Origin: Acidobacteriota bacterium
GTDB lineage: Bacteria > Acidobacteriota > Terriglobia > Terriglobales > Acidobacteriaceae
Direction: 5' to 3'
Length of the DNA stretch: 64,000 bases
Assembly: GCA_019351975.1 (NCBI GenBank)
Contig: JABBOG010000015.1
Location: 1,203-65,202 of the forward strand
Shown one piece after another: positions 10,464 through 36,075 of the stretch. Position 1 is the first letter of the stretch, and every line of letters begins with the position of its first letter. The position numbers and the translations under genes are program-made. The notes under the pieces are model-generated. The model saw only the letters and a program-made list of their open reading frames with translations, did no database searches and had not been told where the DNA came from.

Positions 10464-11567
10464 TTACCAGATTCCCTTGTCGCTGCCGGTAATCTTGTAC
10501 CCAATCGCCGCCGCTGTAGCCAGCATCGGCAGCAGCCCCAACCGCGCACTGCTCTCCAGCTCGCGCCGTTGTACCAGCCCATTCAACTGCGAACGGTACA
10601 GCCCCACAGCCTGCGGCATGATCGGAACCCTCAAAAACCCTCCGCCCACATGCATCACACTGCCTCCGAAGCGCGCCATATCTCTAACAAACGAAGGCAG
10701 TTCCAACCCAAACCCACGGTACTGCTGGACATAGTCCGACACCAGCACCATGTACGTCGCAACGCCATCCCAGATGCCCGCCTCCTGCGCCGAACGCCGC
10801 AAATCCTCATAATCAATCACGCCAGAATCGGCCAATCCCGCCGAATCCAGAATGTCGCACAGCCGGAAATAAAAGTGCCGATACATCCGCTGCAACGTCG
10901 AAATCATAATCCTGTCCGACACCGAAGCCACCCAGAACGCCTGCCCTCCAAACTCCAGAAAACGCGCCCTTTCCGGGATCCGCGCTGCAAGCAATAGGTG
11001 TTCGCCGGTCTGTCCCAGTCTGCCCGTGTGCACCTCAACCGGATCAGCCAATCCCGGGATCTCGAAGTTCCACTTCGATGCGAGCCTGTCCCCCCAGCTG
11101 CGCGGCTCAATCTTCGCGCCGAACCTCCGCTGCATCAACGAACATACAGTCTGCGCAGGAGTATTCGTATACAGATCGATATCGCTACCAAAGTCCGGCC
11201 AATGGTCCAACGACTTTATCACCGTCAGGTCCAGCTTCTCTTCTTCAAACGCGTCGCAAATGATACGCAAGAACCCAGTTGCATTCAGGATTCGTGCATT
11301 TTCCTCAACCATCGCCGTCTGCGCCCACTGCGCCCGCTCGTCATTCTGCGCTGCCAACATGAGATTACGAAACAGCTCCATGCCTCGGATTACAACGTGA
11401 TTCCGCTGGGCCATGACCAACAACGCATCGAACTGCACGCGATCCGCACTCCTCAGCGCCGACACCAGCGCAGGCCGCTGCAGCGACACATCGTCGCACA
11501 GAAGCAGTTCGGAAAGGGTGTTCATCATTTCTTTTTGAGACGCTTGCACATCAGACGGGTTTGCCAT
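10464..11567 (-). CDS. Uncharacterised nucleotidyltransferase family protein
   Basis: VIKSLDHWPDFGSDIDL (GS-DxD Pol-beta superfamily motif), VEVH, RLCDILD; start uncertain (11567 or 11648). Confidence 0.75.
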   Translation of the reverse strand: MANPSDVQASQKEMMNTLSELLLCDDVSLQRPALVSALRSADRVQFDALLVMAQRNHVVIRGMELFRNLMLAAQNDERAQWAQTAMVEENARILNATGFLRIICDAFEEEKLDLTVIKSLDHWPDFGSDIDLYTNTPAQTVCSLMQRRFGAKIEPRSWGDRLASKWNFEIPGLADPVEVHTGRLGQTGEHLLLAARIPERARFLEFGGQAFWVASVSDRIMISTLQRMYRHFYFRLCDILDSAGLADSGVIDYEDLRRSAQEAGIWDGVATYMVLVSDYVQQYRGFGLELPSFVRDMARFGGSVMHVGGGFLRVPIMPQAVGLYRSQLNGLVQRRELESSARLGLLPMLATAAAIGYKITGSDKGIW

Positions 11568-11592
11568 TGCGAACTCTTGATTCCTTCCTAAA

Positions 11593-12864
11593 TTACTGCG
11601 GTGTTGTCGAAGTTGTGGACGGGTTAGCTGCAGCAGGTGCTTGCGCATCCGGTTGAGTCGGAGGCGCGGCAGCAGGAGCAGCCTTCGGTGCCGTATCAGT
11701 GTTCACGATTGACCCATCCCTACGCCTCAGATGGTACGCACCCTGTTTTCCACGCTGCTCCTGGCTGTATGCGTCCAGATTCGTATCCATATCGCTATGG
11801 CTCTCTTCCGCAACGGTCGCCAAAGGCAGCCCCTCAGCGGATGGCTTCGTCGCCAGACCGATCTTTGCTCCCGCGTCGTAGGCCAGCTTTGCCCTTTCAT
11901 AGTAAGCTTTCGCTGTTTCGTAATCACCATCGTGCTCAGCAACATAACCCAGATTATTCAGCGTGAAAGCACTCGACGGGTTCAGTGAGTACGCTTCCTG
12001 GAAATCTTTCTTCGCTGTAGCCCAGTCATTCTGGTTCAGCGCCTGAACGCCGCGTATGGAGAGCATGGCGGAGCGAATCTGTCCGAGGTCCATTGTCTTC
12101 ATGCGCTTACGGAGACTCTTCGCACTTGCAGCAGCCATCTGACTCACCGGTTTACCGCGCCATGCCTTGTCCAGCGTGACGACGACCGGCTGGTTTGATC
12201 GCAAGGAGGCCGCTTCGTCGTAGTACTTCAGCGCGCTTTCGAGATCACCCGTAGATTCCTCATCGACACCTAGATTATTCAGCGTAAAGGGATTCTGCGG
12301 CTCGATCGCCAAAGCGTCTTTCAGGATCGCCTCCGCTTCAAAGCCACGATCCTGAGAGAGCAGCTCCATCGCCAGAACGTTCATACGATTGACACGCATG
12401 GGGCTATTCTTCAGCGTACCGAGAGCGTCGTTCATTGGCCTGCCGTCGAGTTCCTTCACATTGCTGCGGTCAATCGTAGCCGTACATGCCTGCTCTTCTG
12501 CGAGCTTGTAGAACTTCTCAGCTTTATCGACCTGCCCTTGCAACTCCGCGGAATAACCGAGATTGGTCAACGTAAATGGATCGCCTGGATCGTACAGATA
12601 CGCTTTGTAGAAATAGTTCTGCGCACTCTCGTAATGATGCCTCAGCAGCGCGTCCACTCCGTCGCGGTTCAACCGCTGTACAGGCGTCATCTCCGTATAA
12701 CGTGGGATCGTAATCTTCAGCATCTTCGCAGCAAAAGACGGTAACGCAACTAGAAAGGACGAGGCGGATACAGCCGCTATCAGCAGGGATCGCGACGATA
12801 CGATCGCGCTAGAACGCCCTGCGCGACGCTGATGCCGAACCTGTTGAAACAAAATGTTGTGCAT
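11593..12864 (-). CDS. Secreted TPR protein with three internal modules
   Basis: Hydrophobic signal ending PSFA; three FTL[TN]NLG TPR units; Pro/Ala-rich tail. Confidence 0.85.
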   Translation of the reverse strand: MHNILFQQVRHQRRAGRSSAIVSSRSLLIAAVSASSFLVALPSFAAKMLKITIPRYTEMTPVQRLNRDGVDALLRHHYESAQNYFYKAYLYDPGDPFTLTNLGYSAELQGQVDKAEKFYKLAEEQACTATIDRSNVKELDGRPMNDALGTLKNSPMRVNRMNVLAMELLSQDRGFEAEAILKDALAIEPQNPFTLNNLGVDEESTGDLESALKYYDEAASLRSNQPVVVTLDKAWRGKPVSQMAAASAKSLRKRMKTMDLGQIRSAMLSIRGVQALNQNDWATAKKDFQEAYSLNPSSAFTLNNLGYVAEHDGDYETAKAYYERAKLAYDAGAKIGLATKPSAEGLPLATVAEESHSDMDTNLDAYSQEQRGKQGAYHLRRRDGSIVNTDTAPKAAPAAAPPTQPDAQAPAAANPSTTSTTPQ

Positions 12865-12882
12865 ACCTTTATGAGTGTTTTT

Positions 12883-12911
12883 GTGACGGATTGGTTTTCT
12901 CGCAATACACT
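12883..12911 (+). promoter_or_regulatory. Putative sigma70 promoter for the DUF5666-like / multicopper oxidase operon
   Basis: GTGACG-N17-TACACT. Confidence 0.4.
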
Positions 12912-12932
12912 TATTTCATTACACGAAAAAAT

Positions 12933-13817
12933 ATGAGCCTCTTACGTCCTAAATCGTCCGTCAGGCATCACATAAAAATGCTTTCTCTCCTTTTGGTTGC
13001 ACTGCTTGGCTGCACAGCTGTGTCTCAGTCTCCTTCGCCCTCAGCAAGTGCCAGCGCCTCAGTTTCACACCCAGCATCCGCACTCCCCAAAATACCCTCA
13101 GGCAAGACGACCGTAATGGGTGGCGTGATTCGCAATGTCGATCCAGTGCGCGACCAATTTACGCTGAAGGTATTTGGTGGTCACCCAGTAAAAATACTCT
13201 TCGACGAGCGCACGCAGGTATATAAGAACGGCAAGAAGATTCCGACGCTCGATCTTCGCGCAGACGATCACGCCTCCGTCCAGACTGCGTCCGATGGCTC
13301 GTCGATCTTTGCTGTCCGCATCAACATGCTGTCTCATCTGCCGACCAGCGACTTTCGGGGCCGAGTCTCTGCATTCAATCCGACAACCCATGCGCTCACG
13401 GTGGTAACGACTCCCGGTAACCAGTCCATGATCATCGAAGTTCCGACGGACACACCGGTATCGAATGTTGGACAGGACGGCTTAGCGAGTCCCGAGCAAG
13501 GATCGATCAGCTTCGTCAATGGATCTCTGGTCGATGTAGAAGTGATGGGTGGTCGCGGAAAAAACGGGGTCGCTTCGCACGTCAACATCCTTGCCGTTCC
13601 CGGCGCTACCTTTGTATTTGCAGGCAAACTCTCCGCGCTGGATGTGCCTGCTGGAAAGCTTTCCGTTCTCGACCCGCGCGACGGCCAATCCTACCCAATC
13701 AAGTTCGGGTCTTCACTACTTGCCACTGCACGCACACTCCATCTAGGTGCTTCCGTCAAGATATCAACCACGTTCGACGGGAAACAGTATGTGGCTAACG
13801 AGATTACGATGGAGTAA
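12933..13817 (+). CDS. Secreted protein with three OB-fold-like (DUF5666-like) repeats
   Basis: Signal peptide, Ser/Pro linker, three units G.V..vd......tv (GVIRNVD, GRVSAFN, GKLSALD); start 12933 or 12978. Confidence 0.7.
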   Translation: MSLLRPKSSVRHHIKMLSLLLVALLGCTAVSQSPSPSASASASVSHPASALPKIPSGKTTVMGGVIRNVDPVRDQFTLKVFGGHPVKILFDERTQVYKNGKKIPTLDLRADDHASVQTASDGSSIFAVRINMLSHLPTSDFRGRVSAFNPTTHALTVVTTPGNQSMIIEVPTDTPVSNVGQDGLASPEQGSISFVNGSLVDVEVMGGRGKNGVASHVNILAVPGATFVFAGKLSALDVPAGKLSVLDPRDGQSYPIKFGSSLLATARTLHLGASVKISTTFDGKQYVANEITME

Positions 13818-15488
13818 ATGCGTTCAAACGATAGGCGCCATTTTCTCAAGCTCTGCATGGCTTCGGTACCAATGCTTGGTCTCACCGATCGGGCATTTGC
13901 CTTTCGGACTTTCGGTGTTCCATCGTCACAAGCACCCGTGCTTCCATCAAATGCGCTCCCGCCATTTGTCGATCCGCTCCCTGTGCTCAAAAAGCACACG
14001 CCTTTCGCGATGCATGGCAAGACTTCCCTCTATCGCATGCGGATGACAGAGTTCCATCAGCAACTGCACTCGCATCTGCCGGCCACAAAGCTGTGGGGTT
14101 ATGAAGCTCAGTATCCGGGCCCGGTCATCGAAGCTATGCGAGGCGAGCCGGTAGAGATTCATTGGGAGAATCATCTCCCCACGACGCACATCTTCAATGT
14201 CGATCCACGTATTCACGGAGCCATGCCGCCCGCGCCTGTAGTCCGAACGGTTCCGCACCTGCACGGATCGAGAACCGCCTCCTACAGCGACGGACTTCCT
14301 GAGAACTGGTTTGTTCCCGGTCAGGCTGTAACCTACTACTATCCGAACGATCAGCAGGCTGCTCCGCTTTGGTATCACGACCATGCAGTTGGCATTACGC
14401 GCCTGAACGTGTATGCGGGCATGTCGGGATTTTACCTGCTCCGCGATGCGCAGGAGCTAGCTATGAACCTTCCCTCCGGTAAGTATGAGGTGCCACTCAT
14501 TCTTCAGGATCGAAATCTCGACGAAGGAGGGCAACTGGTCTATGATCCAACGAACGATGACGGAAAGCACCTTCCGGGCGGCGTCTGGGGACCAGAGTTT
14601 TTTGGCAATCAAGCTGTTGTCAATGGCGCCGTGTGTCCGTACTTCAGCGTCGAACCAACGCAGTATCGTCTCCGCATGCTCAACGCGGCGAACTCACGCT
14701 TCTTCCATCTGTACTTCAATCTCGCGGAACACCCAACCGATATTCCGTCTCTCCACAAGTTTCATCAGATTGGCAGCGACGGCGGTCTGCTTTCCAGCCC
14801 TGTCGTCATGGAAAAAGTATTGCTCGCGCCCGCCGAGCGCGCCGACGTTATCATTGACTTTGCGGGTCTAGAAGGCAAGACCGTAACGCTATCCAATAAC
14901 GCGACGTCGCCCTTTCCTGGATGGGCGAACCTCACCTCTGAATATGCACCGCTCAGTAGCCTGATGCAGTTCAAGGTAACTGTCCCAGCCTCCTCAAACA
15001 GAACCTTCAGCCTGCCACCCTCAATATCTGTGCCGCGTATCGACCCCTCGCAAGCGGTTGTAACGCGCGATTTTGTGCTCGTCGAACGCATGGATGCGCA
15101 GGGCCGATCGCAAGGCGTGCGCATCAATAATCGTGGATATGACGACCCCGTCACTGAGTTTCCAAAGCTCGGCACCATCGAGAAGTGGCGCTTCATCAAT
15201 ACCACCGAAGACGCACACCCGATGCATCTCCATCTCGTGCAATACCAGATCGTTGAACGACAGGGCTTTAATCCTGTCGCCTACGCTCTTGGAAAGTTAC
15301 AGATGGTTGGGCCACCCAGGCCTCCGGCAGCGAATGAAGCCGGCTGGAAAGATACCGCCGTCGTCAACCCCGCAGAGACCCTCACAATAGCCATCAAATT
15401 CGAAGGCTTCACGGGGCGCTACGTGTATCACTGTCATATGCTGGAGCACGAAGACAACGATATGATGCGTCCATTCGAAGTCACCTAA
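13818..15488 (+). CDS. Three-domain multicopper oxidase (CotA/bilirubin oxidase-like), Tat-exported
   Basis: RRHFLK twin-arginine signal; HLHG, WYHDH, HPMHLH, HCHMLEHEDNDMM copper motifs. Confidence 0.96.
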   Translation: MRSNDRRHFLKLCMASVPMLGLTDRAFAFRTFGVPSSQAPVLPSNALPPFVDPLPVLKKHTPFAMHGKTSLYRMRMTEFHQQLHSHLPATKLWGYEAQYPGPVIEAMRGEPVEIHWENHLPTTHIFNVDPRIHGAMPPAPVVRTVPHLHGSRTASYSDGLPENWFVPGQAVTYYYPNDQQAAPLWYHDHAVGITRLNVYAGMSGFYLLRDAQELAMNLPSGKYEVPLILQDRNLDEGGQLVYDPTNDDGKHLPGGVWGPEFFGNQAVVNGAVCPYFSVEPTQYRLRMLNAANSRFFHLYFNLAEHPTDIPSLHKFHQIGSDGGLLSSPVVMEKVLLAPAERADVIIDFAGLEGKTVTLSNNATSPFPGWANLTSEYAPLSSLMQFKVTVPASSNRTFSLPPSISVPRIDPSQAVVTRDFVLVERMDAQGRSQGVRINNRGYDDPVTEFPKLGTIEKWRFINTTEDAHPMHLHLVQYQIVERQGFNPVAYALGKLQMVGPPRPPAANEAGWKDTAVVNPAETLTIAIKFEGFTGRYVYHCHMLEHEDNDMMRPFEVT

Positions 15489-15517: not shown

Positions 15518-18280
15518 TTATGGAGCGAAGCTCGCAGGCGTGCAGGAACTCGGGCCGCTCGGGGGATCCGTCATCGCAGCAGGAGGCGTCGGCGGGGTCG
15601 ACCAAGGGACGTTATTGAAGTCGAAGAAATCGAGCAGGTTCGGCTGAGCAGCATCACGATTGGTCAAATGCGCCGTCGGGCCGATAAATCTATTTTCCAC
15701 AAACTTCAAGATTGCCGTATGGTCCATCGGAATATGGGAGACGTAATGCGCCCTGGTAAAGGGCGAGATCACCATATTCGGAACTCTGAAACCAAGTTGT
15801 GCAGCAAATCCATGCACTGCCGCTGCATCTGTCGGCTGAGCGCCGGGGTCGTTGTACTGTAGGTCGCAATGTGTCGTCGGAACTCCAGTCGTCGACAGCG
15901 TTGCACCGGTCGACAGGCACGGAGGATACGTATCCGGATTGACTGCAATCGCTGAAATGTCAGGAATTGACGACACAGGCTCGCTACCCACCATCGCATC
16001 TGTATTTTTGTTCGAAGATCCGGGAACGGGCGGGACGTGATCGTAGGGTCCGCCGCCCTCGTCGTACGCGAGGAAGAAGACAGAATCCTTCCAGGCGCTG
16101 CTAGCCATAAGCTTATTCACAATCGTCGAGACTTCAACCTGACCGTTCAGAATTGACTGTCCTGATCCAGGATGCTCATCGTTATTTCCATAGCCGGCTT
16201 CGATGAATGCAAAGCTCGGCAACGTACCATTCTGTAGGTCCGAGTAGTACGTCGACAGTGGCGCGATATGGTTTGTGTCAATGCAGAAGGAATTCGTCGT
16301 ATCGCCCACTGCACTCGATGCTACCGTCGGAGCAACGCAAGCAGGTGCTGAAGTGGCGCCTGCGGGAATAGGATTCTCGTAGAGATACTGATACGAGTAG
16401 GCTAGATATCCAAAGTTTGTCGCCGGATACTCGGAAGAAGCCCCTCCCGCGCAGTCGTCTTCCGAAAGGCAAGCACCCTGCGTGACGGTGTAATAGATCT
16501 TCCAACTGACGTTATTCTGGTCCAACTCCTGAAAGATGTTCGAGATGTTGAGCTGCGGAAGATGGTCATCTCCGCCCGGATCGAACACCAGACCCTGCGT
16601 TGTGCCTCCGGTAAACGTCGCGATACGATTCGGTATGCTCTTGCTGGACAGCGGCGAAAACCAGCGGTCCGAAACGGCAAACTGGGAAGCCATGTAGTAG
16701 TAGTAGTTCAGGAAGCCTTGATCGTAGTATCCCATCGCATGCTGCCCGGTAAGATCCGTAAAAGTTCCAGCGCAACCTACACCATTCGCAGCGTTACAGT
16801 TCTTGGCGTAATTCTCTGCGGTGTGGACAAAACCGTCCATATTGATCGAGCGAGTTGTGCTGAAATCGTAGCGACTCACATCACCATAGCTCTCCAGCCA
16901 GGATGACGTCTCATCGTCAATGCAGGTACTGGTAAATTTGAACAGCGGATACGATGTGCCTTCGTCGCTCTCGTTACTGATCGTCGTCAGCTTGTCGTCA
17001 ATTCCATCGACGCTGTAGTTATTCCCATCGGCGCCCACGTTCCATCCGTTTTTCACACGATACGGATTGAGCATGCCGAAGTAGTTATCGAACGTGTGAT
17101 TCTCCTGCAGCATGAAAATGACGTGATCAATCGACATCAGACTACCTGGAGGTGTCACAGTAACAGTTGCCGCAGCTGTTGCGGACGCTCCAGTACCCGA
17201 AGCTGTAGCTGTGTATACAGTCGTCGCCGTTGGACTCACCGACTCCGTTCCGCCCGTTGCAGATAAGGTATAGCTGGTTCCACCGCCACTCAGAATGACC
17301 TGTGTTGCGTTCGTGGCAACCACGGTAAGGGTTGATGCATTTCCAGTCGTAATCGACGTTGGGCTTGCAACAATCGACACTGTGGCCGCTGGCGCTGCGG
17401 TAACTGTCACAGTCGCTGAGGCCGTTCGCGTTCCTCCAGCACCTGTCGCCGTCGCCGTGTACGTCGAAGTACTCGTGGGGCTAACCTGCATGGTGCCTCC
17501 AGCCGGTTGCAGCGTGAATGTCCCGCTTGGCCCAGTAACCGTCACCTGTGTGGCATTCGTTGCCGTAACGGTCAGGGTGGAACTCGAACCGGAAGCAATT
17601 GAGGTCGGACTCGCGACGATCGTGACAATGGGCACAGCGACGACGTTAATTTGTACGGTCGCGGTGGCTTTGCCTCCCAGCCCCGTCGCGGTTGCAGTAT
17701 AGGTTGTCGTCGCCGATGGACTCACCGACTGCTGGCCGCCGGTCGGAGCAATCGTATAGCTGCTGCCATCGGTACCCGTCACTACAACTTGTGTCGCATT
17801 CGCAGCGACGATCGTCAGTACGGACGAGCTGCCCGCCGAGATTGACGTTGGGTTCGCTGCGATCGTAATCGTAGGTGCAGCAACCGGAGCTGAAACCGTA
17901 ATCGTAGCTGCGGCCGTGGCTGAGGCCTTCCCTGCCGTACCTGTTGCAGTCGCAGTATACGTTGCCGTCGCTGTCGGCGTGACGACATGGGTGCCTCCAC
18001 CAGAAGCGAGCGAGAAACTCGAACCATCCGTTCCCGTCACGCTAACTTGAGTTGCATTTGTCGCAGCCACGGTAAGCGTGGAGCTTGCCCCAACGACAAG
18101 CGACGTCGGATTGGCTGCGATAGTGACCGCTGGCGAAGGAAGTGAACTGGTAGTGACGCTCGCATTCGAGCCGCATCCCGCAAGAAAGCATAGAAACGCA
18201 ATGCAGCCAAATAGAACCACATACTTGCGAAGTTGCGCTGCGCCGGAGGGGTCGCTGCTATGGGGGATCATACATTTCAT
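15518..18280 (-). CDS. Phosphoesterase (phospholipase C/AcpA family) lipoprotein with four Ig-like repeats
   Basis: Lipobox LAGC; HVIFMLQENHTFDNYFG, DEHP, YDEGGGPYDHVPP, GFRVP, DHTAILKFVE. Confidence 0.9.
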   Translation of the reverse strand: MKCMIPHSSDPSGAAQLRKYVVLFGCIAFLCFLAGCGSNASVTTSSLPSPAVTIAANPTSLVVGASSTLTVAATNATQVSVTGTDGSSFSLASGGGTHVVTPTATATYTATATGTAGKASATAAATITVSAPVAAPTITIAANPTSISAGSSSVLTIVAANATQVVVTGTDGSSYTIAPTGGQQSVSPSATTTYTATATGLGGKATATVQINVVAVPIVTIVASPTSIASGSSSTLTVTATNATQVTVTGPSGTFTLQPAGGTMQVSPTSTSTYTATATGAGGTRTASATVTVTAAPAATVSIVASPTSITTGNASTLTVVATNATQVILSGGGTSYTLSATGGTESVSPTATTVYTATASGTGASATAAATVTVTPPGSLMSIDHVIFMLQENHTFDNYFGMLNPYRVKNGWNVGADGNNYSVDGIDDKLTTISNESDEGTSYPLFKFTSTCIDDETSSWLESYGDVSRYDFSTTRSINMDGFVHTAENYAKNCNAANGVGCAGTFTDLTGQHAMGYYDQGFLNYYYYMASQFAVSDRWFSPLSSKSIPNRIATFTGGTTQGLVFDPGGDDHLPQLNISNIFQELDQNNVSWKIYYTVTQGACLSEDDCAGGASSEYPATNFGYLAYSYQYLYENPIPAGATSAPACVAPTVASSAVGDTTNSFCIDTNHIAPLSTYYSDLQNGTLPSFAFIEAGYGNNDEHPGSGQSILNGQVEVSTIVNKLMASSAWKDSVFFLAYDEGGGPYDHVPPVPGSSNKNTDAMVGSEPVSSIPDISAIAVNPDTYPPCLSTGATLSTTGVPTTHCDLQYNDPGAQPTDAAAVHGFAAQLGFRVPNMVISPFTRAHYVSHIPMDHTAILKFVENRFIGPTAHLTNRDAAQPNLLDFFDFNNVPWSTPPTPPAAMTDPPSGPSSCTPASFAP
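17150..18127 (-). repeat. Four tandem ~80-aa Thr/Ala-rich Ig/PKD-like repeats within the phosphoesterase
   Basis: Consensus V.I.A.PTSI..G.SS.LTV.ATNATQV.vtG....ytl...GG...VSPt.TttYTATAtG...A seen four times. Confidence 0.9.
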
Positions 18281-24237: not shown

Positions 24238-24356
24238 GGGTCACCGAACTTATATCGAGTATATAGATACTTTAGACTCAAAATTGGTAAAGAATGTCTC
24301 CTGCGATTCGATAGATTTATCCTAGATTGCTGTCCTATTTTGCGCGGTGATACATC

Positions 24357-24372
24357 GTCTACAATTGTGGAC
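24357..24372. promoter_or_regulatory. Near-perfect 16-bp palindrome in the divergent promoter region
   Basis: GTCTACAATTGTGGAC, 7 of 8 pairs. Confidence 0.35.
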
Positions 24373-24441
24373 AACAGGTCATCAAAGTTCATGCATCTCA
24401 GTGATTCTGACCAAGAGGATACTTTGCAAACATCTGCGTCC

Positions 24442-28198: not shown

Positions 28199-28698
28199 TG
28201 AATCGACTATTTGCCGCAAGTTTCGCTCTGACCGCTCCCTTCACCCTATTGGCAGCAGCACAACAGCCATCCGTTCGCGTCGAGCCACCACAGCTACAAG
28301 GCTCCCGTCCCGTAGAGAAGCAGACCGAAGTTTCGGTCATCCGTGATTATCTGCAATCCTGGAAGACATTGGATACAGCGCTCAACCAGAACGACGCATC
28401 GGCGCTGGATGCGAGTTTCGTTGGTACAGCCAGGGATAAACTCGCCAGCACGATAGAGGAACAGACAGCGCTCGGCCTGCATACGCGTTATACAGCAGAG
28501 TCACATGATCTCCAGATCGTTTTCTACTCCCCCGAAGGATCGTCCATTGAACTCATCGACACCGTCGAATACCATGAACAAGTGATGGATCACGACAAGG
28601 TTTTGGCGGATAAACCAATGCATCAACGGTTCGTGGTCGTTCTCACTCCGTCGCAGGTGAGTTGGAGAGTTCGCATCTTTCAGGCCTCGTCGCAGTAG
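28195..28698 (+). CDS. Exported hypothetical protein (possibly NTF2-like)
   Basis: Signal peptide; ATGA overlap with the previous stop; GGGAGG SD. Confidence 0.7.
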   Translation: MMNRLFAASFALTAPFTLLAAAQQPSVRVEPPQLQGSRPVEKQTEVSVIRDYLQSWKTLDTALNQNDASALDASFVGTARDKLASTIEEQTALGLHTRYTAESHDLQIVFYSPEGSSIELIDTVEYHEQVMDHDKVLADKPMHQRFVVVLTPSQVSWRVRIFQASSQ

Positions 28699-28734: not shown

Positions 28735-29745
28735 CTACGGCTTCTTTATCGCTGTTTCACCGCCAGCGTTGTTCGCACCAGAGGGCGTCGCCGCTGGGCA
28801 GGTCGGCAGTCCCTGCTCAATGTCGGAACCCTCTTCATAGTCGTTCCATGTTTCGATCATCATGAACGGAATGACCTGTCCCGCCGGAAAGAACTGTTTC
28901 CAATAATTGAAAGTCTTCTCGTACGTTTGACCGCACTGCCCCGAGATATGCCGATTCAGGCTCCAGGATGCCTTGCTGTCGTTGAGTTGCGGCCATGCCC
29001 CGCCCACGATGATCATGTCCGCATACTTTGTGGCCATCGTCTTATAGAAATCAGCCAAATACCGCTCACCCCAATTGCTTCCGTCCGCTGCCCATCCAAG
29101 AGGTCCCGGGTTGATCCACGGATAAAATCCGTCAAACGCTTCCGGGTGAGGCCCAGGCAAATTTTCCTGAATCAACAGGGGTGGCGTGTCCCACTTGTTG
29201 ACGACCGACCGTACCTTGGCCCAATCCGTGTGATTTCCGTTGGGAAAGACGAAGATGATGGGCCTTCCCTCATACGTTAGATAGGCTTGATGGCCCTTCG
29301 ACTTCGAAGCAAGATAGGTGTCATGGAACATGGTAAAGTCGGCGATGGCTTCATCCGTGGCACCGTCTTCCTGATTGCTCTCTTCATACATCATCGCAAC
29401 ATGGAACTTGTTCTTATCAGCCGCAGCCTGCATCAACGCGTACGTTTGATCCACATAGGCATCTCTATCGCCATACCAATCCATTACAAACGCGGAAATC
29501 CCCATCGATTTTGCTCTTCGAATCTGGCTTCGGAGCACATCTTCATCGTGCGACGAGTATCCCACCGAGATGTGCCTCGATTCACCAAACCACCCTTCAT
29601 ACACCGCAATCACCGCAGGCGAAGGTCCCGTCGCTTTGTACTTGAGTTGCACCGGCGGTGTCTGTCCAAAGCACCCGTGGATCAGAAGAAGAAATGAAAG
29701 GATTGTGGCACACGACGCAGCCTGCATACACGTATTATCTAACAA
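28735..29745 (-). CDS. Glycoside hydrolase family 71/99-like protein, exported
   Basis: AVYEGWF, GYSSHD..VLRSQIRRAKSMGISAFVMDWYG, YEGRPIIFVF, IETWNDYEEGSDIE. Confidence 0.8.
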   Translation of the reverse strand: MLDNTCMQAASCATILSFLLLIHGCFGQTPPVQLKYKATGPSPAVIAVYEGWFGESRHISVGYSSHDEDVLRSQIRRAKSMGISAFVMDWYGDRDAYVDQTYALMQAAADKNKFHVAMMYEESNQEDGATDEAIADFTMFHDTYLASKSKGHQAYLTYEGRPIIFVFPNGNHTDWAKVRSVVNKWDTPPLLIQENLPGPHPEAFDGFYPWINPGPLGWAADGSNWGERYLADFYKTMATKYADMIIVGGAWPQLNDSKASWSLNRHISGQCGQTYEKTFNYWKQFFPAGQVIPFMMIETWNDYEEGSDIEQGLPTCPAATPSGANNAGGETAIKKP

Positions 29746-29900: not shown

Positions 29901-31868
29901 GTGTCCATTGGATCCTCAGATAAATCAAAGGAACTAAAAGCGAAAATTATCTCCGGAAGTCTCGTCTTGCTCTCCGGATCGAGCTTCGCAACGGCTGTCA
30001 ATCTGGCCTACAACGTGGCTGTCGCACGTTTTCTCGGACCGATAGGATTTGGCCGCGCTACAGCCGTCTATACTTTGTTGACCTTGGCCTCCGCCGCTAC
30101 CCTGTCCTTCCAGATCACTTCCGCTAAAGTGGTCGCAAAAAAGGGATCGCAGGAGAGCAAAGATGCGGGATACCGCGACCTCCATCGCATCGCATGGGCA
30201 TGCGGAATTGCTGTGGCCCTGCTGCTCATCCTCTTTCGCCAGGCCATCACATCGTATCTAAATCTCCCGACGACGTCTTTGGTCGCTCTCATCGCAATCG
30301 GCGTCGCGTTCTACGTTCCGCTTGGCAGCCGACGTGGCTACATCCAGGGCGCATATGGATTCAGCAGCCTGGCTAAAAATCTGGTCCTCGAAGGTATCGT
30401 CCGGCTCGGCGGCTCGCTGCTCATGATTGGCCTCGGTTTCGGCGTCACCGGCGTGATTGCCGCCAACTCAGCCGCTATTGCCATCGCGTACTTTGCCATT
30501 ATTCCGAAGCTGTCCAAGCGGATCGCCAATCCAATGGAATTTGCGCACACGCTCAGGGAAATCACGCAAGGAGTAGTGTTCTACTCTGGGCAGGTCCTGA
30601 TCAATAACTGCGACATCATGCTGGTTAAGCATTTTTTTGCCTCAGAAGAGGCCGGCTTGTACGCTGCCATCGCCATGGTAGGCCGCGTCACATTCTCTTT
30701 TTCCACAGCCATCACCAACAGTATGTTTCCAGTGGTCGCAGGCTCGGGTGAAGCCGAAAGGAAGAATTTATCTCTCATCACGACGTCCCTGCTACTGGTT
30801 CTTGGAGTTGGTGCGGTCTTCGCCGCCGGTCTGCTTCTGACGCCTTCATGGATCTGGACAAAATTCTTCGGTGCCAGCTTCGAGATCGCCGGCCCGCATG
30901 GATTTCCCTATCTCCTCGCGCTTTATGCGATCACAACCGTCATCTATTCACTCAGCGTTGTCGTCATCACGTATGAGATGTCCTACAAGATCGCCAATAC
31001 CAGCTGGATGCAGCTGCTCTTCAGCGGCTTCGTTATTGTCGGCATCTGCCGGTTCCACGAGTCGCTCCGTGAAGTAATCCTCGTACAGCTCGTTCTCATG
31101 GTCGTCCTGTTTGTCCTTGTTGGTCTTCCCTTTCTCGCGGATGCGCTGCGCAACGCAAATGCGAGCGACGAAGTCGCAGTCCACACGCTCCGTCTGATGC
31201 GGCAAATTTCTGAAGACGAGGTTATCGCCGAATTCATACGAAGCGAATTCGAAAACGTCGCTTACAGCCGCTATCACGGCACGCTACGCGACATCGTCTT
31301 CCAGCCCAACCTCCATGACCCCGAGGAGAATGCCAAACGCAAAGCGCTCCTCCTGCTCAGGCATCGGTCTCTGTGGCGCGAGCTGCCACCGGATACGCAA
31401 TGGTATGAGATCACGATGACGGAGGCGGACCTGGCCCAAATACGGGTCTTCCCGCGGGCTCACTGGATTCATATCGCTCGTGGGAACTTTTCCTTGCCTC
31501 AGATCATGAAGCGAATGCGCACCTGGCATAAGACAAACGATGACCCTTTCGTCCGGAAGATCACAAGCATCCGCAGCGGTCTGGCCAGCGAAAAGTTGAA
31601 GACCGGATCCGTGCTGCTCATCGGAATCAACGAAGTGGAACCAATGACGATACTCGATGGCAATCACAGATTCGTTGCTGCCGCGCTCGAAGGAAAAATG
31701 GATAAACTACGCTTTCTCTGTGGTTTATCCCCGAACATGACACGCTGTTGCTGGTACAGAACCAATCTTTCGAACCTCACCCGCTACAGCGGTAATCTTA
31801 TTCGGCATGTTGCCAGGCATCCCGAAGCTGATCTTAAGCGTCTCTTTGAAGTGTCGGGACAGTTATAA
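29901..31868 (+). CDS. Oligosaccharide flippase (Wzx/MOP family) fused to a C-terminal soluble DGNHR domain
   Basis: About 12 TM segments with ARFLGPIGFG, CDIMLVKHFF..EEAGLYAA; then about 225 aa soluble domain with TILDGNHRFVAAAL. Confidence 0.88.
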   Translation: MSIGSSDKSKELKAKIISGSLVLLSGSSFATAVNLAYNVAVARFLGPIGFGRATAVYTLLTLASAATLSFQITSAKVVAKKGSQESKDAGYRDLHRIAWACGIAVALLLILFRQAITSYLNLPTTSLVALIAIGVAFYVPLGSRRGYIQGAYGFSSLAKNLVLEGIVRLGGSLLMIGLGFGVTGVIAANSAAIAIAYFAIIPKLSKRIANPMEFAHTLREITQGVVFYSGQVLINNCDIMLVKHFFASEEAGLYAAIAMVGRVTFSFSTAITNSMFPVVAGSGEAERKNLSLITTSLLLVLGVGAVFAAGLLLTPSWIWTKFFGASFEIAGPHGFPYLLALYAITTVIYSLSVVVITYEMSYKIANTSWMQLLFSGFVIVGICRFHESLREVILVQLVLMVVLFVLVGLPFLADALRNANASDEVAVHTLRLMRQISEDEVIAEFIRSEFENVAYSRYHGTLRDIVFQPNLHDPEENAKRKALLLLRHRSLWRELPPDTQWYEITMTEADLAQIRVFPRAHWIHIARGNFSLPQIMKRMRTWHKTNDDPFVRKITSIRSGLASEKLKTGSVLLIGINEVEPMTILDGNHRFVAAALEGKMDKLRFLCGLSPNMTRCCWYRTNLSNLTRYSGNLIRHVARHPEADLKRLFEVSGQL

Positions 31869-31948
31869 GCAGTACGCAACAATTGGAAACACTTGTACCA
31901 CTTGCTCAAAACAACCAGGGGAAAGGCCCCAGAAAGAAGGAAATTCAG

Positions 31949-32347
31949 ATGTCAATGATCAAACGCGAGGTACGGGTTCATCAGGTTCCGGATCAAGTCA
32001 ATGCAACCGCAGAGCGTACTTTTCTCCAGGAATTACAGAAATGCAGCGAGTCAGAGCGTCCCCGCTTCGTGCTCGACTGCTCCCGCGTTAGAGAGATGGA
32101 CATCGCCACAATTCACCTTCTGCTTTCGAGCCTTGAGGAAGTAATGAAGTGCAACGGAGATGTGAGGCTTGCTTCGCTCCACCCAGCTGCTGAAGAGATG
32201 CTGAGCCTAGCCGGTGTGAATCGCCTCTTTGAGATCTATCCCACCGTTGACGGAGCCGTTCGCAGCTACCACCAGCGCCCCACAAGCATCGCTCCCATGG
32301 ACTTTGGCACCGAGCAATTCGACCGGAGCATAGAACTTGCGGCGTAG
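31949..32347 (+). CDS. STAS domain protein (anti-sigma antagonist-like)
   Basis: FVLDCSRVREMD, GDVRLASL, LSLAGVNRLFEIYPTVDGA; AAGGA SD. Confidence 0.88.
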   Translation: MSMIKREVRVHQVPDQVNATAERTFLQELQKCSESERPRFVLDCSRVREMDIATIHLLLSSLEEVMKCNGDVRLASLHPAAEEMLSLAGVNRLFEIYPTVDGAVRSYHQRPTSIAPMDFGTEQFDRSIELAA

Positions 32348-32413
32348 TTCTACAGAGTTACGGTCACTCTCGATGTTGGGCCCCGTTATAATCAAACTGC
32401 CTTGGGAGTAACG

Positions 32414-32863
32414 ATGAGTCACCGTAATTTGTTGCTGGACCGTGCTCTGGCAGTAGTTGTAGCTGCAGCAACATTCGTTCCTATGTGCGCACATGCGGCA
32501 CCGGTGCAAGATCAGGTGCCGCAAAGCACGCCTTCCCAGACAGTGGCCAACCCTCAACCTGATGCCCCAGCATCTGCCAAGCCATCCAGTCTCGCTGAAC
32601 CCGATTCGGCCACTCAGTCTTCTTCCTCAGCAACGAACTCCCCCTCGCAGGCGAGTCAGCCTCCCGCAACCGGTACGGCGTTGGCGCCATACGAAAAGCA
32701 GGACGGCATTACAGGCTCCAAGCCAGCCGGCGCTGCCATCGCACCCGGGAAACAACACCGTTCGCGCACCCTCGCAATTCGCGTAGGCCTCATCGTAGGA
32801 GCTGTCATTGCGGTTGGCGTCGTCGCTGGTGCCTCCATGGCAAGCCCCGCTCGAGCAAATTGA
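32414..32863 (+). CDS. Small exported Ser/Pro/Gln-rich protein with C-terminal hydrophobic anchor
   Basis: Signal ending AHA; low-complexity linker; RSRTLAIRVGLIVGAVIAVGVVAGA TM segment; GGGAG SD. Confidence 0.7.
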   Translation: MSHRNLLLDRALAVVVAAATFVPMCAHAAPVQDQVPQSTPSQTVANPQPDAPASAKPSSLAEPDSATQSSSSATNSPSQASQPPATGTALAPYEKQDGITGSKPAGAAIAPGKQHRSRTLAIRVGLIVGAVIAVGVVAGASMASPARAN

Positions 32864-33561
32864 TGTTAGAGCCACAACACAATGTGAATGACCGCATGCT
32901 TCCCTCTCACCCCATGGTCATCAGCTTCTCCGGGATCGACGGTGCTGGCAAGAGCACGCAAATAGACAATCTAATAACGCATCTCACAGCTGCAGGTCTC
33001 AGCATCACCCTGATCACCTTTTGGGATAACGTCGTCATGCTTAAGGCCCTTCGCGAAGGTGCCGGGCACAAGGTCTTCAAAGGAGATAAAGGGGTCGGAA
33101 GCCCGGACGCCCCTATTCAGCGACGCGACAAGAATGTCCGTTCCCCCATCATCACCGTCTTCCGCATGGCGTTTTACCTGCTGGACGCATTCGCTCTTCG
33201 AAAGATCATGCGGCGCGTAAAGCAGTCGAATGTGGATGTCGTCATCTTTGACCGTTATCTCCTGGATGAAGTCGCCAACCTGAACTTCGACAACGCTTTC
33301 GTCAGAGCCTACGCACATCTGCTGCTCAAACTGATGCCCAAGCCATCCATCAGCTTCGTGCTCGACGCTGATCCGATCCAGGCCTTCGCAAGAAAGCCCG
33401 AGTATCCCCTCGATTTCCTGCATATCAATCGCAACGCCTACCTGCGACTGGCGCGCGAGGTGGGTGCAACGATCATTCCACCGTCTACCATCGAAGCGGC
33501 AAAGGCTGCAGTCGTCGAATCTGTCGCCCAACGACAGAGAAGTCTCCAGCTCCACCCGTAA
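32860..33561 (+). CDS. Thymidylate kinase-like P-loop kinase
   Basis: ISFSGIDGAGKSTQI, VIFDRYLLD, PKPSISFVLDADP; overlaps the upstream stop. Confidence 0.82.
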   Translation: MMLEPQHNVNDRMLPSHPMVISFSGIDGAGKSTQIDNLITHLTAAGLSITLITFWDNVVMLKALREGAGHKVFKGDKGVGSPDAPIQRRDKNVRSPIITVFRMAFYLLDAFALRKIMRRVKQSNVDVVIFDRYLLDEVANLNFDNAFVRAYAHLLLKLMPKPSISFVLDADPIQAFARKPEYPLDFLHINRNAYLRLAREVGATIIPPSTIEAAKAAVVESVAQRQRSLQLHP

Positions 33562-33589
33562 CCAGCAACTGAAAGCATTCCTAACAAGA

Positions 33590-33631: not shown

Positions 33632-33650
33632 GACGTTTGTGTTCAGAGCT

Positions 33651-34943
33651 TCAGTAATACGTAAAGGTCATCTTATCTACGTACGTAGTGTTCGACGCCT
33701 GATTGTGGTTGCCGTCCATTTGATAGTTGACTGTCATACCCCACCACTCGCCCGGCACCGCAAATGGAGCGACCGTCTGGTTGATCGTATGCGTCACTCC
33801 ATTGACAGTGATCGTCTGATACAGCAGATCATTGTTCGATTCCCGCTGCACTTGAAGCGTGATGTGATTCCACGCCCCGTTGTTCAACTGGCAAGGTACC
33901 GACGTTGGCATCCAATGGGCACTTACGTTGTTCCAGATGTCCCACACGCCGTCTCCCAAGTGATTACACTGCGTCCCCCACTCCATTCCAACGCTGTCTA
34001 AATACATATTGATGTCGTACTCAAGCGATTGCGTAATGCCGAGATTGGTGACATATGTATAGCTATCGAGCGTAAAGTTGTGCAATGTAGGCAAGAGTTT
34101 ATGGTTTTGATCTGCAAGCCCTTCAACGTTCCCCTGTCCCATCACCGGATTCGAGAACAGCGCGTCTGAGTAAGGTGTGGAACCTCCCAGGGTGAAACGT
34201 GTCGCGTTGCCGGTCAGCGAGATGTAGCCCTGATGTTGGAGCATGGACCAGTTGACGCCATTGCACGGCGAGCAGATATTATCGGACGGCGGCAACTCTC
34301 CCCACTGATGCCAACCGTTCAGGGCCTGCAGGTTAGATACCGTACTTCCGCCTCCTCCCGCAACCGTCACGGGAACAGCTTTCGTCGTGCTTCCTCCGCA
34401 GTAATCCCAGGCCTGCACTACGGTATTGTGGTTTCCTGCGCTCATCGTGACCTGTGTGTTCAGCTTAGAGCCCTGCGACACTGTATTCAGCTGTCCGTCG
34501 ACATAAACCCCCATCGAGGCTACGCCCTTGTTGCAACTTGAATTCGCGGATGCCACATATGGCGTTACCGAGGGAACCGTGCTGTTTACCGATGGTGTTG
34601 TCACTACGACGCCCGCCGCCGTGCTGGAATTGATACTCAGCTGCGCGGAAGTTGAGCCTCCGCAGTAATCCCACTCTTGAATGACGAGCTTGTGTGTGCC
34701 CTCAGAAACGGCAACAGTTCTATTAAGGCTGACCCCATTCTCAACAGCGTCAAGACCGTTATCGATATACACACCCATCGAAGCGACGCCTCGTGAACAA
34801 GTCGTCGTATTGGCACTGGCCACAATGTTTATGCTCGATCCAACTGTTTCTCCGTTTGAAGGACTGTTAACCACGACGGTTGCGAATGCAGGTAACGCAA
34901 AAGCAAAGGTCAGCATCAGAGGTGCGTAGGGGAGTTTCTTCAT
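33651..34943 (-). CDS. Exported protein with two Ig-like repeats and a C-terminal beta-sandwich (lectin/ConA-like) domain
   Basis: Signal ending PAFA at ATG 34943; duplicated C.[RK]GVASMGVY.D...WDYCGG; Trp/Asn-rich C-domain. Confidence 0.8.
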   Translation of the reverse strand: MKKLPYAPLMLTFAFALPAFATVVVNSPSNGETVGSSINIVASANTTTCSRGVASMGVYIDNGLDAVENGVSLNRTVAVSEGTHKLVIQEWDYCGGSTSAQLSINSSTAAGVVVTTPSVNSTVPSVTPYVASANSSCNKGVASMGVYVDGQLNTVSQGSKLNTQVTMSAGNHNTVVQAWDYCGGSTTKAVPVTVAGGGGSTVSNLQALNGWHQWGELPPSDNICSPCNGVNWSMLQHQGYISLTGNATRFTLGGSTPYSDALFSNPVMGQGNVEGLADQNHKLLPTLHNFTLDSYTYVTNLGITQSLEYDINMYLDSVGMEWGTQCNHLGDGVWDIWNNVSAHWMPTSVPCQLNNGAWNHITLQVQRESNNDLLYQTITVNGVTHTINQTVAPFAVPGEWWGMTVNYQMDGNHNQASNTTYVDKMTFTYY

Positions 34944-35147
34944 GTAAATCTGCCTTAGAGTAAAATGGGCGTGCAAGATGCAGGTGCTACAGTTTGGCGC
35001 TCCACAAAGTCCAACAAGTGATGCAGCTACCGTTCGACTGGCTCCGTTTCTATCAGCCATCAAAAGTTTTCTCTCATCCCAAAGATGGAGAATTCATCTA
35101 CTTTGCCTGTACAACACCGGCATAAGTAGCCATCACATCAAACCTCT

Positions 35148-35295
35148 CGTATTACGACTTCATAATACGGCCACGTACTAGATTTGACAATTGAAGTAAA
35201 GCAACTTTTTCGGTTGCAAGATCATCATACATTTATAAAGCCGTAGAGCAACACGGCGCAAAATTAGCTCGTCGAGCTCCAAAAATATTATTTTT
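35148..35295. promoter_or_regulatory. Cluster of five inverted repeats in an AT-rich divergent promoter region
   Basis: CGTATTA-N8-TAATACG, GCAAC-N7-GTTGC, GCCGT-N8-ACGGC, AGCTCG-T-CGAGCT, AAAAATA-T-TATTTTT. Confidence 0.5.
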
Positions 35296-35370
35296 AGAAG
35301 TATTTGCATTGAAATCATAGATTTAAGCTTGCATGAACCGTCAGCGCACTCATCTCATCCCAGGGGCGCT

Positions 35371-36075
35371 ATGAAATTTCTTGTTGAAAAGTTTTATTTT
35401 GTCTCTGCTTTGTCGCTCCTAATGCTGGTTTTCATCCCCGCGAGCCAAAAATGCGCTCTTGCACAGCAGCAGACCCCTTCCCAATCTGGCCAGCCCAACC
35501 TTAAAACACCCATCAAAACCTCAGCACTGCGATCCGTAACACAGCGGAGAACCTCGCGCATCAAGAATCCTCCTGCACAGCCACCCGTATCTGCTGCTGC
35601 GACGGTTCTTCTCTCAAACGGAAGCCTACAGGTCAAAGCCAACAACTCGGATCTATCTCAGATCCTCACCCAGGTTGCTGCCGACGGAGGCATGACCATC
35701 GACGGCTCTGTTCCTAACGTCAAAGTCTACGGAACCTATGGTCCGGCGGACTCAAGACAGGTCCTCACGGATCTGCTCACAGGTCTCGGTTACAACTTCG
35801 TGATGGTTGGCACGACATCCTCTGGGGTACCCAGCAAATTGCTGCTTACAGCACGGTCGAATCAGATCTCTCCATCACCGCCCACCGTATATGTCCCACC
35901 GTCGCGAAACATTACCCCGCCCGAAACTTCAGCCAGCGAAGATCAACCTGGGCCGGGCGCAATCGTCAACGTCCCTCCCGCAGGCTCCGACGACCCGCAG
36001 GAACGTGCACAACAGAATCTCCAGCGACTCCAGCAAATGCACGATCAACAAAGCAAACCAATGCAGCCGCAGTAG
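35371..36075 (+). CDS. Exported hypothetical protein with STN/secretin-N0-like domain
   Basis: Signal peptide; LQVKANNSDLSQILTQVAADGGMTIDG...VYGTYGP...VLTDLL; Pro/Gln-rich flanks. Confidence 0.65.
   Translation: MKFLVEKFYFVSALSLLMLVFIPASQKCALAQQQTPSQSGQPNLKTPIKTSALRSVTQRRTSRIKNPPAQPPVSAAATVLLSNGSLQVKANNSDLSQILTQVAADGGMTIDGSVPNVKVYGTYGPADSRQVLTDLLTGLGYNFVMVGTTSSGVPSKLLLTARSNQISPSPPTVYVPPSRNITPPETSASEDQPGPGAIVNVPPAGSDDPQERAQQNLQRLQQMHDQQSKPMQPQ

Follow-up and report, generated by a model that had tools for sequence, protein, structure and literature searches.

A conserved gene block of the Acidobacteriaceae as a candidate locus for GT-C-centred assembly and TPR-porin export of an envelope glycan

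What is made by the block of 18 tightly packed open reading frames (ORFs) that is flanked by pgi and the phosphoenolpyruvate carboxykinase (PEPCK) gene in the genome of a soil Acidobacteriota bacterium? The block occupies positions 10464-36075 of a 64,000-nucleotide (nt) stretch of contig JABBOG010000015.1 (hereafter the window, meaning the whole stretch that was analysed), and an earlier note, made from the sequence alone, had taken it for an undescribed surface-polysaccharide assembly, tailoring, and export system of 18 genes. ORFs were indeed found where that note placed its genes, and these are named here g1 to g18 in their order along the window. Our preferred reading, which we hold with moderate confidence, is that the block represents one copy of a conserved locus for lipid-carrier-dependent envelope-glycan assembly, centred on a GT-C-fold glycosyltransferase (GT) and joined to export through an AlgE-like TPR-porin, because the domain and fold assignments, the synteny and co-occurrence of the genes, the g8-g9 fusions, the deep core kept by distant relatives, and the donor type of an associated GT2 enzyme all point in this direction. 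The window's copy would then be a horizontally acquired version that has no GT2 gene and carries a few passenger genes.

Most of the enzymatic parts that the note had recognised were borne out. By Pfam, AlphaFold2 (AF2) modelling, and Foldseek, these comprise a GT4 enzyme (g6), a GT-C enzyme (g8), a Wzx-type flippase with a fused domain (g13), and a TPR protein with a barrel (g7); the same can be said of the GH71/99-like hydrolase (g12), the STAS protein (g14), the thymidylate kinase (TMK)-like protein (g16), the phosphoesterase lipoprotein (g5), the multicopper oxidase exported by the twin-arginine translocation (Tat) route (g4), and the second TPR protein (g2).

At the centre of the system stands g8 (24340..26199, +), a 619-residue polytopic protein whose transmembrane (TM) profile gives ~12 TM helices. 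At the sequence level, g8 returned no Pfam, NCBIfam, or PDB match, and solved GT-C enzymes were reached by fold search only. Here, an AF2 model built from a 46-sequence alignment (predicted local distance difference test, pLDDT, 72.5; predicted template modelling score, pTM, 0.74) was compared with the PDB using Foldseek, and the top 32 matches were all GT-C enzymes, with probabilities of up to 1.00. Foremost among these was AftA (6e-6), the others including STT3, PglB, AglB, ArnT, AftD, DPY19, ALG9, Emb, PimE, and ALG3. At the level of the predicted fold, g8 is confirmed as a member of the GT-C superfamily, being polytopic and having the conserved GT-C transmembrane module. Moreover, Asp69, within a SYDxNxH motif in the first periplasmic loop just after the first TM helix (residues 44-60), is invariant in the 46 sequences and is a candidate for the acidic catalytic residue of GT-C enzymes, and the periplasmic domain of the protein measures only ~150 residues. 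A few distant members of the g8 family match PF10131 or PF13231 of the GT-C/PMT clan, the former being listed as "function unknown" (PMC7801869).

Directly downstream of g8 follow its presumed partners, namely g9 (26196..27329, +), a membrane-anchored periplasmic protein of 377 residues with FxLYD-type beta domains (FxLYD, 1.8e-7), and two exported proteins, g10 (27326..28198, +; 290 residues, with a signal peptide) and g11 (28180..28698, +; 172 residues, with a signal or anchor sequence). Overlaps of 4 nt join g8 to g9 and g9 to g10, as they also do g15 to g16. For g11, profile searches gave no family match, even when divergent homologues were included.

To what extent these genes form a unit can be read from their relatives. 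In a scan with the g8 alignment, at least 499 species-representative genomes held a g8 relative, and the best 80 of these, almost all from Acidobacteriaceae, constitute the 80 related loci considered here; 53 of them, with a complete ±10 kb around g8, are taken as full-length. Among the 53, the order and strands of g5-g6-g7, g8-g9-g10-g11, g12, and g13-g14-g15-g16 recur almost everywhere, in carriers that include Granulicella, Terriglobus albidus, Acidipila rosea, Edaphobacter, Terracidiphilus, and others. Each of g8, g9, g10, and g11 is found in 53/53 full-length loci (and g8 and g9 in 80/80 related loci), followed by g6 and g7 (52/53 each), g12 (50/53), g13 (49/53), g14 (48/53), g16 (47/53), g15 (44/53), and g5 (42/53). 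Two short contigs with acidobacterial synteny, L018 and L046 (g8 76% and 67% identical), are labelled as metagenome-assembled genomes of Rhodanobacteraceae and Acetobacteraceae, and are probably mis-binned acidobacterial contigs.

The same grouping is seen at greater distance. When all 18 proteins were searched by tblastn against ±20 kb around the g13 homologue in five divergent genomes of the same family, g7 to g13 were found together in four of the five at 36-64% identity; g6 accompanied them in three, with no g6 match in G249, and g2, g3, g5, g14, g15, and g16 were present in two or three despite rearrangements. When an evenly drawn sample of 401 genomes from the phylum was searched with full-length g13 and with the profiles of g8 and of the g7 barrel, each of the three picked out the identical 6 genomes, all belonging to the window's family. 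Within an evenly drawn family sample of 301 genomes, g8 was found in 151, which includes 111 of the 220 high-quality genomes and 84 of the 142 genera. Cultured carriers include Acidipila rosea DSM 103428, Terriglobus albidus DSM 26559, and Terriglobus sp. 2YAB30_2. The note had named a lack of co-occurrence in other genomes as the outcome that would speak against its proposal; instead, the genes recur as a unit in 53 syntenic loci and in the same 6 of 401 genomes. From these comparisons, some 13-15 of the 18 genes appear to belong to the conserved unit, so the note's claim for the cluster as a whole stands for these and not for g4, g18, and g1, whose occurrence is sporadic.

A gene for a GT2 enzyme of 342 residues lies directly after g11 in 48 of the 80 related loci, 39 of these having it between g11 and g12. 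Along its whole length, this enzyme can be aligned with PgfS (1.8e-75) as well as with the undecaprenyl-phosphate Ara4FN transferase ArnC (1.8e-45), which places it by sequence among the polyprenyl-phosphate sugar synthases and apart from the processive synthases. Its adjacency in 48/80 loci hints indirectly that g8 may use a polyprenyl-phosphate-linked donor. The cluster in the window has no such GT2, its g11 and g12 being separated by a gap of 36 nt, and the gene is also missing from the window's closest relatives in Granulicella, Acidisarcina, Acidipila, Terriglobus, and Edaphobacter.

Looking further afield, the g8 profile found 884 cluster representatives among 1.8 billion proteins, 445 of them at E <= 1e-30. 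Many measure 1000-1160 residues, and the five such proteins that were read are all fusions of g8 with g9; judged by these, fusions seem to be common among the 884. In BLASTP searches run for two of the five, fusion P0138 was 43% identical to g9 over 329 residues and fusion P0155 matched g9 at E 9e-19. By protein name, the close relatives of one fusion come from Actinomycetota (Nakamurella, Cryobacterium, Microbacterium, and Actinoplanes) and Chloroflexota (Kouleothrix, Chloroploca, and Caldilineaceae). Gene neighbourhoods were read for three fusions. Locus L098 (36% GC, short contig) reads GT2, GT-C/g9, an unassigned gene, and GH5; L099 (75% GC) reads GT4, PST, GT2, STAS, SpoIIE, HATPase_c_2, STAS, response regulator, Exo_endo_phos, GT-C/g9, a g10-like protein, and an unassigned gene; and L100 (53% GC) reads PST and STAS, then GT4, GT2, and GT-C/g9. 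Identities in these loci are 33-36% for g6 (full length, in L099 and L100), 34-37% for g8, and 28-33% for the N-terminal part of g13, and the GT2s best match PgfS, ArnC, PpgS, AglJ, or dolichyl-phosphate hexose transferase. In L099, the protein after the GT-C gene gives a 28% partial match to g10, and the Exo_endo_phos gene beside the GT-C gene is non-homologous to g5. On this comparison, the ancient core would be GT4, PST, STAS, GT2, and GT-C/g9, with the TPR-barrel, the GH99-like enzyme, g10 and g11, the phosphoesterase, and the TMK-like protein as probable additions in the acidobacterial (diderm) version. Since L099 and L100 hold the core genes and no TPR-barrel gene on their contigs, the core can presumably work without the barrel.

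Among the cytoplasmic and inner-membrane parts, g6 (18397..19749, -) encodes the GT4 glycosyltransferase (PF13692, 7e-17; PF00534, 5e-16), a core member predicted to be cytoplasmic. The transporter g13 (29901..31868, +; 655 residues) consists of a MOP/PST (Wzx-like) part of ~430 residues and a cytoplasmic domain of ~225 residues. PF01943 (Polysacc_synt) is matched by 17 of 31 g13 homologues, the g13 of the window itself falling below threshold, and the matches of g13 and the 31 homologues are to PF01943 and PF13440 and never to PelG (PF16933). The homologues of g13 number >3398. Its C-terminal domain (residues 430-655; 31188-31865), with invariant DGNHR, CCWY, and FPRAxW motifs, is kept in 60 homologues of 649-693 residues and in nearly all acidobacterial ones; the PST genes of L099 and L100 lack it. 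In G443 (C5:26328-28279; L010/L011), a genome of the same family whose g7 and g8 are on another contig than its g13, the PST part and the DGNHR domain are separate adjacent ORFs, so the domain is an independent module. No Pfam or PDB relative of it was found by sequence; a ParB/sulfiredoxin-like nature was considered and is not supported by the sequence searches, in which 31 members gave neither a ParBc nor any other match at E values of up to 10, and no PDB match.

Only 14 nt downstream of g13 lies g14 (31883..32347, +), a STAS-domain protein (PF01740, 6.3e-13), and in L100 a STAS gene likewise adjoins the PST gene, as in L099 one follows GT2 at a distance of two genes from PST. A full partner-switching set (STAS, SpoIIE phosphatase, HATPase_c_2 kinase, a second STAS, and a response regulator) was observed between the GT2 and GT-C genes of that same locus (L099:4742-7610). 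Because STAS recurs beside or near the PST gene and L099 holds this set, one may speculate that the system is regulated by a STAS-based phosphorylation switch and not by cyclic di-GMP (c-di-GMP). Further downstream, g15 (32402..32863, +; 153 residues) is a poorly conserved protein with a low-complexity Pro/Ser/Ala-rich region and a C-terminal TM helix, and g16 (32860..33561, +; 233 residues) is a P-loop protein of thymidylate-kinase fold (PF02223, 8.6e-8) with a conserved 70-residue insert, its family profile matching TMK 3hjn at 2e-14 in two stretches.

The export side is represented foremost by g7 (19888..24237, -), a core member in Acidobacteriaceae whose 1449 residues comprise a signal peptide, ~1000 residues of TPR (TPR_2, 1.5e-52), and a C-terminal outer-membrane beta-barrel of ~370 residues. 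All 63 full-length homologues (63/63) end in h-x-h-F, the hydrophobic-x-hydrophobic-Phe outer-membrane signal. AF2 modelled the last 420 residues as a beta-barrel of ~16 strands (pLDDT 71.6, pTM 0.74), and AlgE chains head the Foldseek matches of this model (5.5e-6), with generic porins and TonB-dependent barrels ranking behind them. A Slam-like nature of g7 is not supported by the fold search, there being no Slam structure among the 50 matches listed.

Next to the GT-C module, g12 (28735..29745, -; 336 residues) encodes an exported GH99/GH71-like endo-alpha-glycanase (PF16317, 1.9e-8, 34.3 bits against a cut-off of 33; PF03659, 4.8e-7). Over residues 58-313, which is nearly full length, its family profile matches 4acz, a GH99 endo-alpha-mannosidase from Bacteroides (3.5e-10), and its conserved motif TWNDYEEG has a WNDYEEG part that may be comparable to the NEWHEG motif of GH99. 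Since a Gly-Cys pair is invariant after the signal, g12 is possibly a lipoprotein. In L098, a GH5/cellulase-family gene (L098:7250-8740, 36% GC) stands in place of the GH99-like glycanase, so it appears that the glycanase role is kept even where the enzyme family differs. A further exported enzyme, g5 (15518..18280, -), is a 920-residue lipoprotein (LAGC lipobox) with repeated N-terminal domains and a phosphoesterase of the phospholipase C (PLC)/acid-phosphatase family (PF04185, 9.4e-58).

Put together, these parts suggest the following route. In the cytoplasm, GT4 g6 would attach sugar to a lipid primer or to a polyprenyl-phosphate carrier, as would, in most relatives, the in-cluster GT2 of PgfS/ArnC type; here, a GT2 encoded elsewhere would be needed. 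The Wzx-like PST transporter g13 would flip the lipid-linked donor, and the STAS protein g14 and the cytoplasmic domain of g13 may gate this flipping. Outside the inner membrane, g8, with g9 as its obligatory periplasmic partner (and with g10 and g11), would transfer the flipped sugar to a growing or pre-formed glycan, the exported GH99-like g12 would trim or release chains, and the lipoprotein phosphoesterase g5 would handle a phosphate linkage. Finally, the ~1000-residue TPR scaffold of g7 would lead the polymer to its own AlgE-like barrel for export. The hybrid pathway that the note had proposed, in which lipid-linked products are flipped, worked on by the GT-C enzyme, and exported through a TPR-barrel, is partly supported overall, its outline fitting the parts.

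Several points weigh against this preferred reading. The AF2 models are of medium confidence (pLDDT ~72) and the Foldseek TM-scores lie at 0.4-0.5, and profile comparison with the PDB and Pfam gave the g7 barrel no sequence-level link to AlgE, BcsC, PgaA, or PelB. The GT2 is absent from the window's cluster, with only paralogues at 29-33% identity elsewhere in the genome, and none of the loci examined (the 80 related loci and L098-L100) has an initiating phosphoglycosyl transferase. Moreover, the roles given to g5, g14, g15, g16, and the C-terminal domain of g13 are guesses, and sequence cannot tell whether g8 polymerises or decorates.

Compared with described systems, the locus is a member neither of Pel nor of the synthase-dependent or Wzx/Wzy systems, because the defining parts of these were looked for and are missing. 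Searches of the full-text literature found no description of the locus, which does not prove that none exists. When Pfam and NCBIfam models of the known systems were checked on the 18 ORFs, no Pel, Bcs, Pga, Alg, or Wzy/Wzc/Wza profile claimed the locus, in agreement with the note's view that it does not map to a described pathway. As for its further claim that Wzy, Wzc, Wza, and GT2 are lacking, this holds for the 18 ORFs, none of which matches such a profile, but not for the related loci, 48/80 of which have the GT2. A Wzx (PST/MOP) flippase is shared with the Wzx/Wzy systems, whereas Wzy, Wzc/Wzz, Wza, and the initiating phosphoglycosyl transferase were found neither on the 18 ORFs nor among the recurrent extra genes of the 80 loci.

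Rather, the closest known logic is that of three-component periplasmic glycosylation by a GT2, a flippase, and a GT-C enzyme, here with a GT4 of its own and, in diderms, a synthase-type exporter. With such systems (GtrA/B/C, ArnC/E/F/T, CsbB/GtcA/YfhO, and GT136) the locus shares a flippase of the MOP superfamily and a periplasmic GT-C, this pair (g13 and g8) co-occurring in 6/6 positive genomes of the 401; a synthase-type GT2 is encoded in 60% of related loci and absent from the window's cluster. Cooperation between a GT2-like synthase, a MOP-family flippase, and a GT-C that carries a fused carbohydrate-binding domain has been demonstrated, as in the Citrobacter youngae system of polyprenyl-phosphoribose synthase, MATE flippase, and GT136 (PMC11127046); this fused domain of GT136 parallels g9, which is fused to the GT-C in other phyla. 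In contrast, the three-component systems decorate the glycan of a separate pathway and have no exporter, while the locus has in addition a conserved GT4, a STAS protein, a phosphoesterase, a GH99-like glycanase, and a TPR-porin of its own; its flippase is a large protein of Wzx/PST type that bears a further domain on the cytoplasmic side, and its GT-C family is distinct. With the mycobacterial AftA-D and EmbA-C enzymes, which use decaprenyl-phosphate sugars, it would share the extension of a polymer outside the membrane by a GT-C from polyprenyl-phosphate monosaccharides, and AftA is the top match of g8; however, mycobacterial arabinan and mannan assembly differs in lineage, donors, and gene sets, and has no TPR-porin and no in-cluster Wzx-type flippase gene. 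The likeness to AlgK/AlgE, BcsC, and PgaA consists of a TPR scaffold with a 16-18-strand barrel, the g7 barrel being closest to AlgE, and of the glycanase g12, whereas the barrel of the locus has no sequence homology to theirs, its TPR array is much longer (~1000 residues), and both a processive GT2 synthase and a c-di-GMP receptor are missing.

The alternative that survives best, and which we nonetheless consider rather unlikely, is a Pel-like one, in which g6 polymerises in the cytoplasm from nucleotide sugars, g13 together with STAS, g15, and g16 (as a PelD/PelE-like complex) forms an inner-membrane channel, g7 exports, and g8 to g11 with the GT2 merely add side-chain sugars. With Pel (PelA-G of Pseudomonas aeruginosa), the locus has in common a cytoplasmic GT4, a 12-TM protein that is PST-like, an exporter that unites TPR and beta-barrel in one chain, a periplasmic hydrolase, and the lack of a GT2 synthase, so that GT4, PST-like protein, TPR-porin, and periplasmic glycanase mirror PelF, PelG, PelB, and PelA, respectively. 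A decorating role for g8 would also fit the known bacterial three-component GT-C systems, which mostly decorate rather than polymerise (PMC11127046), and the loss of the GT2 from the cluster of the window and of ~25 relatives without loss of other genes would fit an optional decoration. Yet no other parts are as conserved or as widespread as g8 and g9 (80/80 loci), and the GT-C stays with GT4 and PST in L099 and L100, where no porin gene is found, which would be odd for a mere decorator. The likeness of the GT4 to PelF and of the TPR and porin to PelB remains at the level of fold and architecture, with no match to a PelF- or PelB-specific model, and the PelG model (PF16933) does not match either. 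For PelA (GH114 and CE4), PelC, PelD (the GAF/GGDEF c-di-GMP receptor), and PelE, the Pfam and NCBIfam models found nothing on the 18 ORFs, and Pel in turn has nothing that corresponds to the STAS protein, the TMK-like protein, or the GT-C/g9-g11 module. Moreover, with g13 taken up as the polymer channel, the decoration donor would lack a small flippase of its own. Pel, which the note had regarded as the closest outline, therefore gives way to the three-component GT-C systems in this respect.

A second alternative, which we judge improbable, is that the locus glycosylates and displays proteins or lipoproteins, with g8 acting like an oligosaccharyltransferase on the exported g5, g10, and g17, and g7 as a Slam-like TPR-barrel translocon. 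That STT3, PglB, and AglB are among the best Foldseek matches of g8 speaks for it, as do the NCBIfam name of PgfS (best match of the in-cluster GT2), which places it in a protein-glycosylation pathway, the many exported Ig-like proteins and lipoproteins of the locus, and a weak TPR_Slam match of g7 (3.9e-8, below cut-off). Against this, the best match of the barrel is the polysaccharide porin AlgE, with no Slam among the 50 matches listed. A ~1000-residue TPR array and a dedicated endo-glycanase are hallmarks of polymer export, and in Alg, Bcs, Pga, and Pel it is a dedicated hydrolase with a TPR-porin that marks the export step. Also, the periplasmic domain of g8 is small, its top match AftA has a polymer acceptor, and the exported proteins vary between genomes, which the enzymes do not. 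That there is no single system at all, only unrelated envelope genes brought together by chance or in a mosaic island, is very improbable: g4, g18, and g1 are indeed rarely linked to the rest, and the region has been rearranged, pgi and PEPCK lying apart in related genomes, but the gene order kept in 53 loci, the exact co-occurrence in 6/6 of 401 genomes, the fusions, and the 4-nt overlaps contradict it for g5-g16.

Going beyond the preferred reading of a GT-C-centred locus, we tentatively propose, as a possibility on the weaker side, that it stands for a further general secretion route. Here, the GT-C g8 (with g9-g11) would be a periplasmic polymerase working from flipped polyprenyl-phosphate sugars, coupled in diderms to a TPR and AlgE-like porin, with STAS on the flippase as its switch in place of c-di-GMP or a tyrosine kinase; such a route would occur in half of the Acidobacteriaceae and, in a porin-less form, in Actinomycetota and Chloroflexota.

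The remaining genes of the block are less tightly bound to it. We infer that g2, g3, and g17 are accessory periplasmic parts. The first, g2 (11593..12864, -; 423 residues), has an N-terminal signal or anchor and TPR repeats (TPR_2, 1.5e-19), and is a frequent accessory, as is g17 (33651..35063, -; 470 residues), an exported protein with Ig-like repeats (Big_7, 9.8e-6). The exported g3 (12891..13817, +; 308 residues) has a hydrophobic N-terminus with a LLGC lipobox-like site. They occur in 27/53 (g17), at least 22/53 (g3), and at least 16/53 (g2) full-length loci, the counts for g1 to g4 being lower bounds because the ±10 kb taken for the related loci barely extends to these genes or stops short of them, and the g2-g3 pairing is kept in G218, G249, and G239 despite rearrangement. 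In comparison, g4, g18, and probably g1 look like sporadic co-transferred passengers, with at least 9/53, 5/53, and at least 2/53 full-length loci (at least 9, 5, and at least 3 of the 80 related loci). The Tat-exported multicopper oxidase g4 (13818..15488, +; Cu-oxidase_2, 1e-23; PhsA/CueO-like; RRHFLK motif) was found in 0/5 of the divergent genomes of the family. The exported g18 (35329..36075, +; 248 residues) is of low complexity with a signal or anchor sequence, and g1 (10464..11648, -; 394 residues; GC at third codon positions, GC3, 0.68) is cytoplasmic, its homologue adjoining the cluster only in G218, L055, and L070. A nucleotidyltransferase, presumably g1, had been listed in the earlier note; this assignment found no support, as hidden Markov model (Pfam, NCBIfam) and PDB searches gave no match and g1 has the GSDIDLY motif alone.

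Signal or anchor sequences are present on g3, g9, g10, g11, g12, g15, g17, and g18. The Ig, NTF2, and OB folds that had been ascribed to the exported proteins were not confirmed beyond weak matches (Big_7 in g17, FxLYD in g9, and DUF5666, at 8e-5, in a g3 homologue) and tandem repeats in g5 and g17. With divergent homologues as queries, g3, g9, g10, g11, and the N-terminus of g5 gave sub-threshold family matches only. The repeats are direct ones, spaced by 486 nt in the N-terminal half of g5 (17196-17771) and by 264 nt in g17 (34393-34694), which corresponds to tandem domains of ~162 and ~88 residues, respectively, and is consistent with Ig-like repeats.

On its left, the block is flanked by pgi (8594-10225, -; NF001211, E 1.5e-259) and on its right by the GTP-PEPCK gene (36298-38145, +), and the largest unassigned gap within it is <=265 nt. 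Its GC content is 0.51-0.56 versus ~0.60-0.64 in the flanks, and its GC3 is 0.53-0.68 versus 0.81 in pgi and 0.75 in PEPCK. Given this deviant codon composition and the absence of g13 from all 36 other genomes of the same genus that were searched (0/36), the whole block, passengers included, probably entered the genome by horizontal transfer. At its edges, no tRNA, integrase, or convincing flanking repeat was found. An empty pgi-PEPCK site in congeners was considered and rejected, as in 7 same-genus genomes pgi and PEPCK are separated by 0.16-3 Mb or placed on different contigs; since they are not neighbours there, no empty insertion site can be demonstrated. The GC skew of the plus strand is strongly negative in the flanks (1-10000 and 36000-64000; -0.17 to -0.38 in 2-kb windows), persisting over the plus-strand-encoded PEPCK gene, and is ~-0.05 to -0.12 within the block.

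Acidobacteriaceae are among the most abundant soil bacteria, and their extracellular polysaccharides are thought to be important for soil aggregation, desiccation tolerance, and carbon turnover; to our knowledge, the pathways behind these polysaccharides in the family are hardly known. The locus is found in about half of the family and, judging by protein names, its core in two other phyla, with no characterised member, and culturable carriers such as Terriglobus albidus and Acidipila rosea make the question open to direct testing. It joins modules that textbooks keep apart, these being a lipid-carrier/GT-C step and a synthase-type TPR-porin exporter. Should the GT-C prove to be the polymerase, this would give a function to the PF10131-related GT-C families and would add a new class beside the Wzx/Wzy, ABC, synthase, and OPX/barrel secretion routes.

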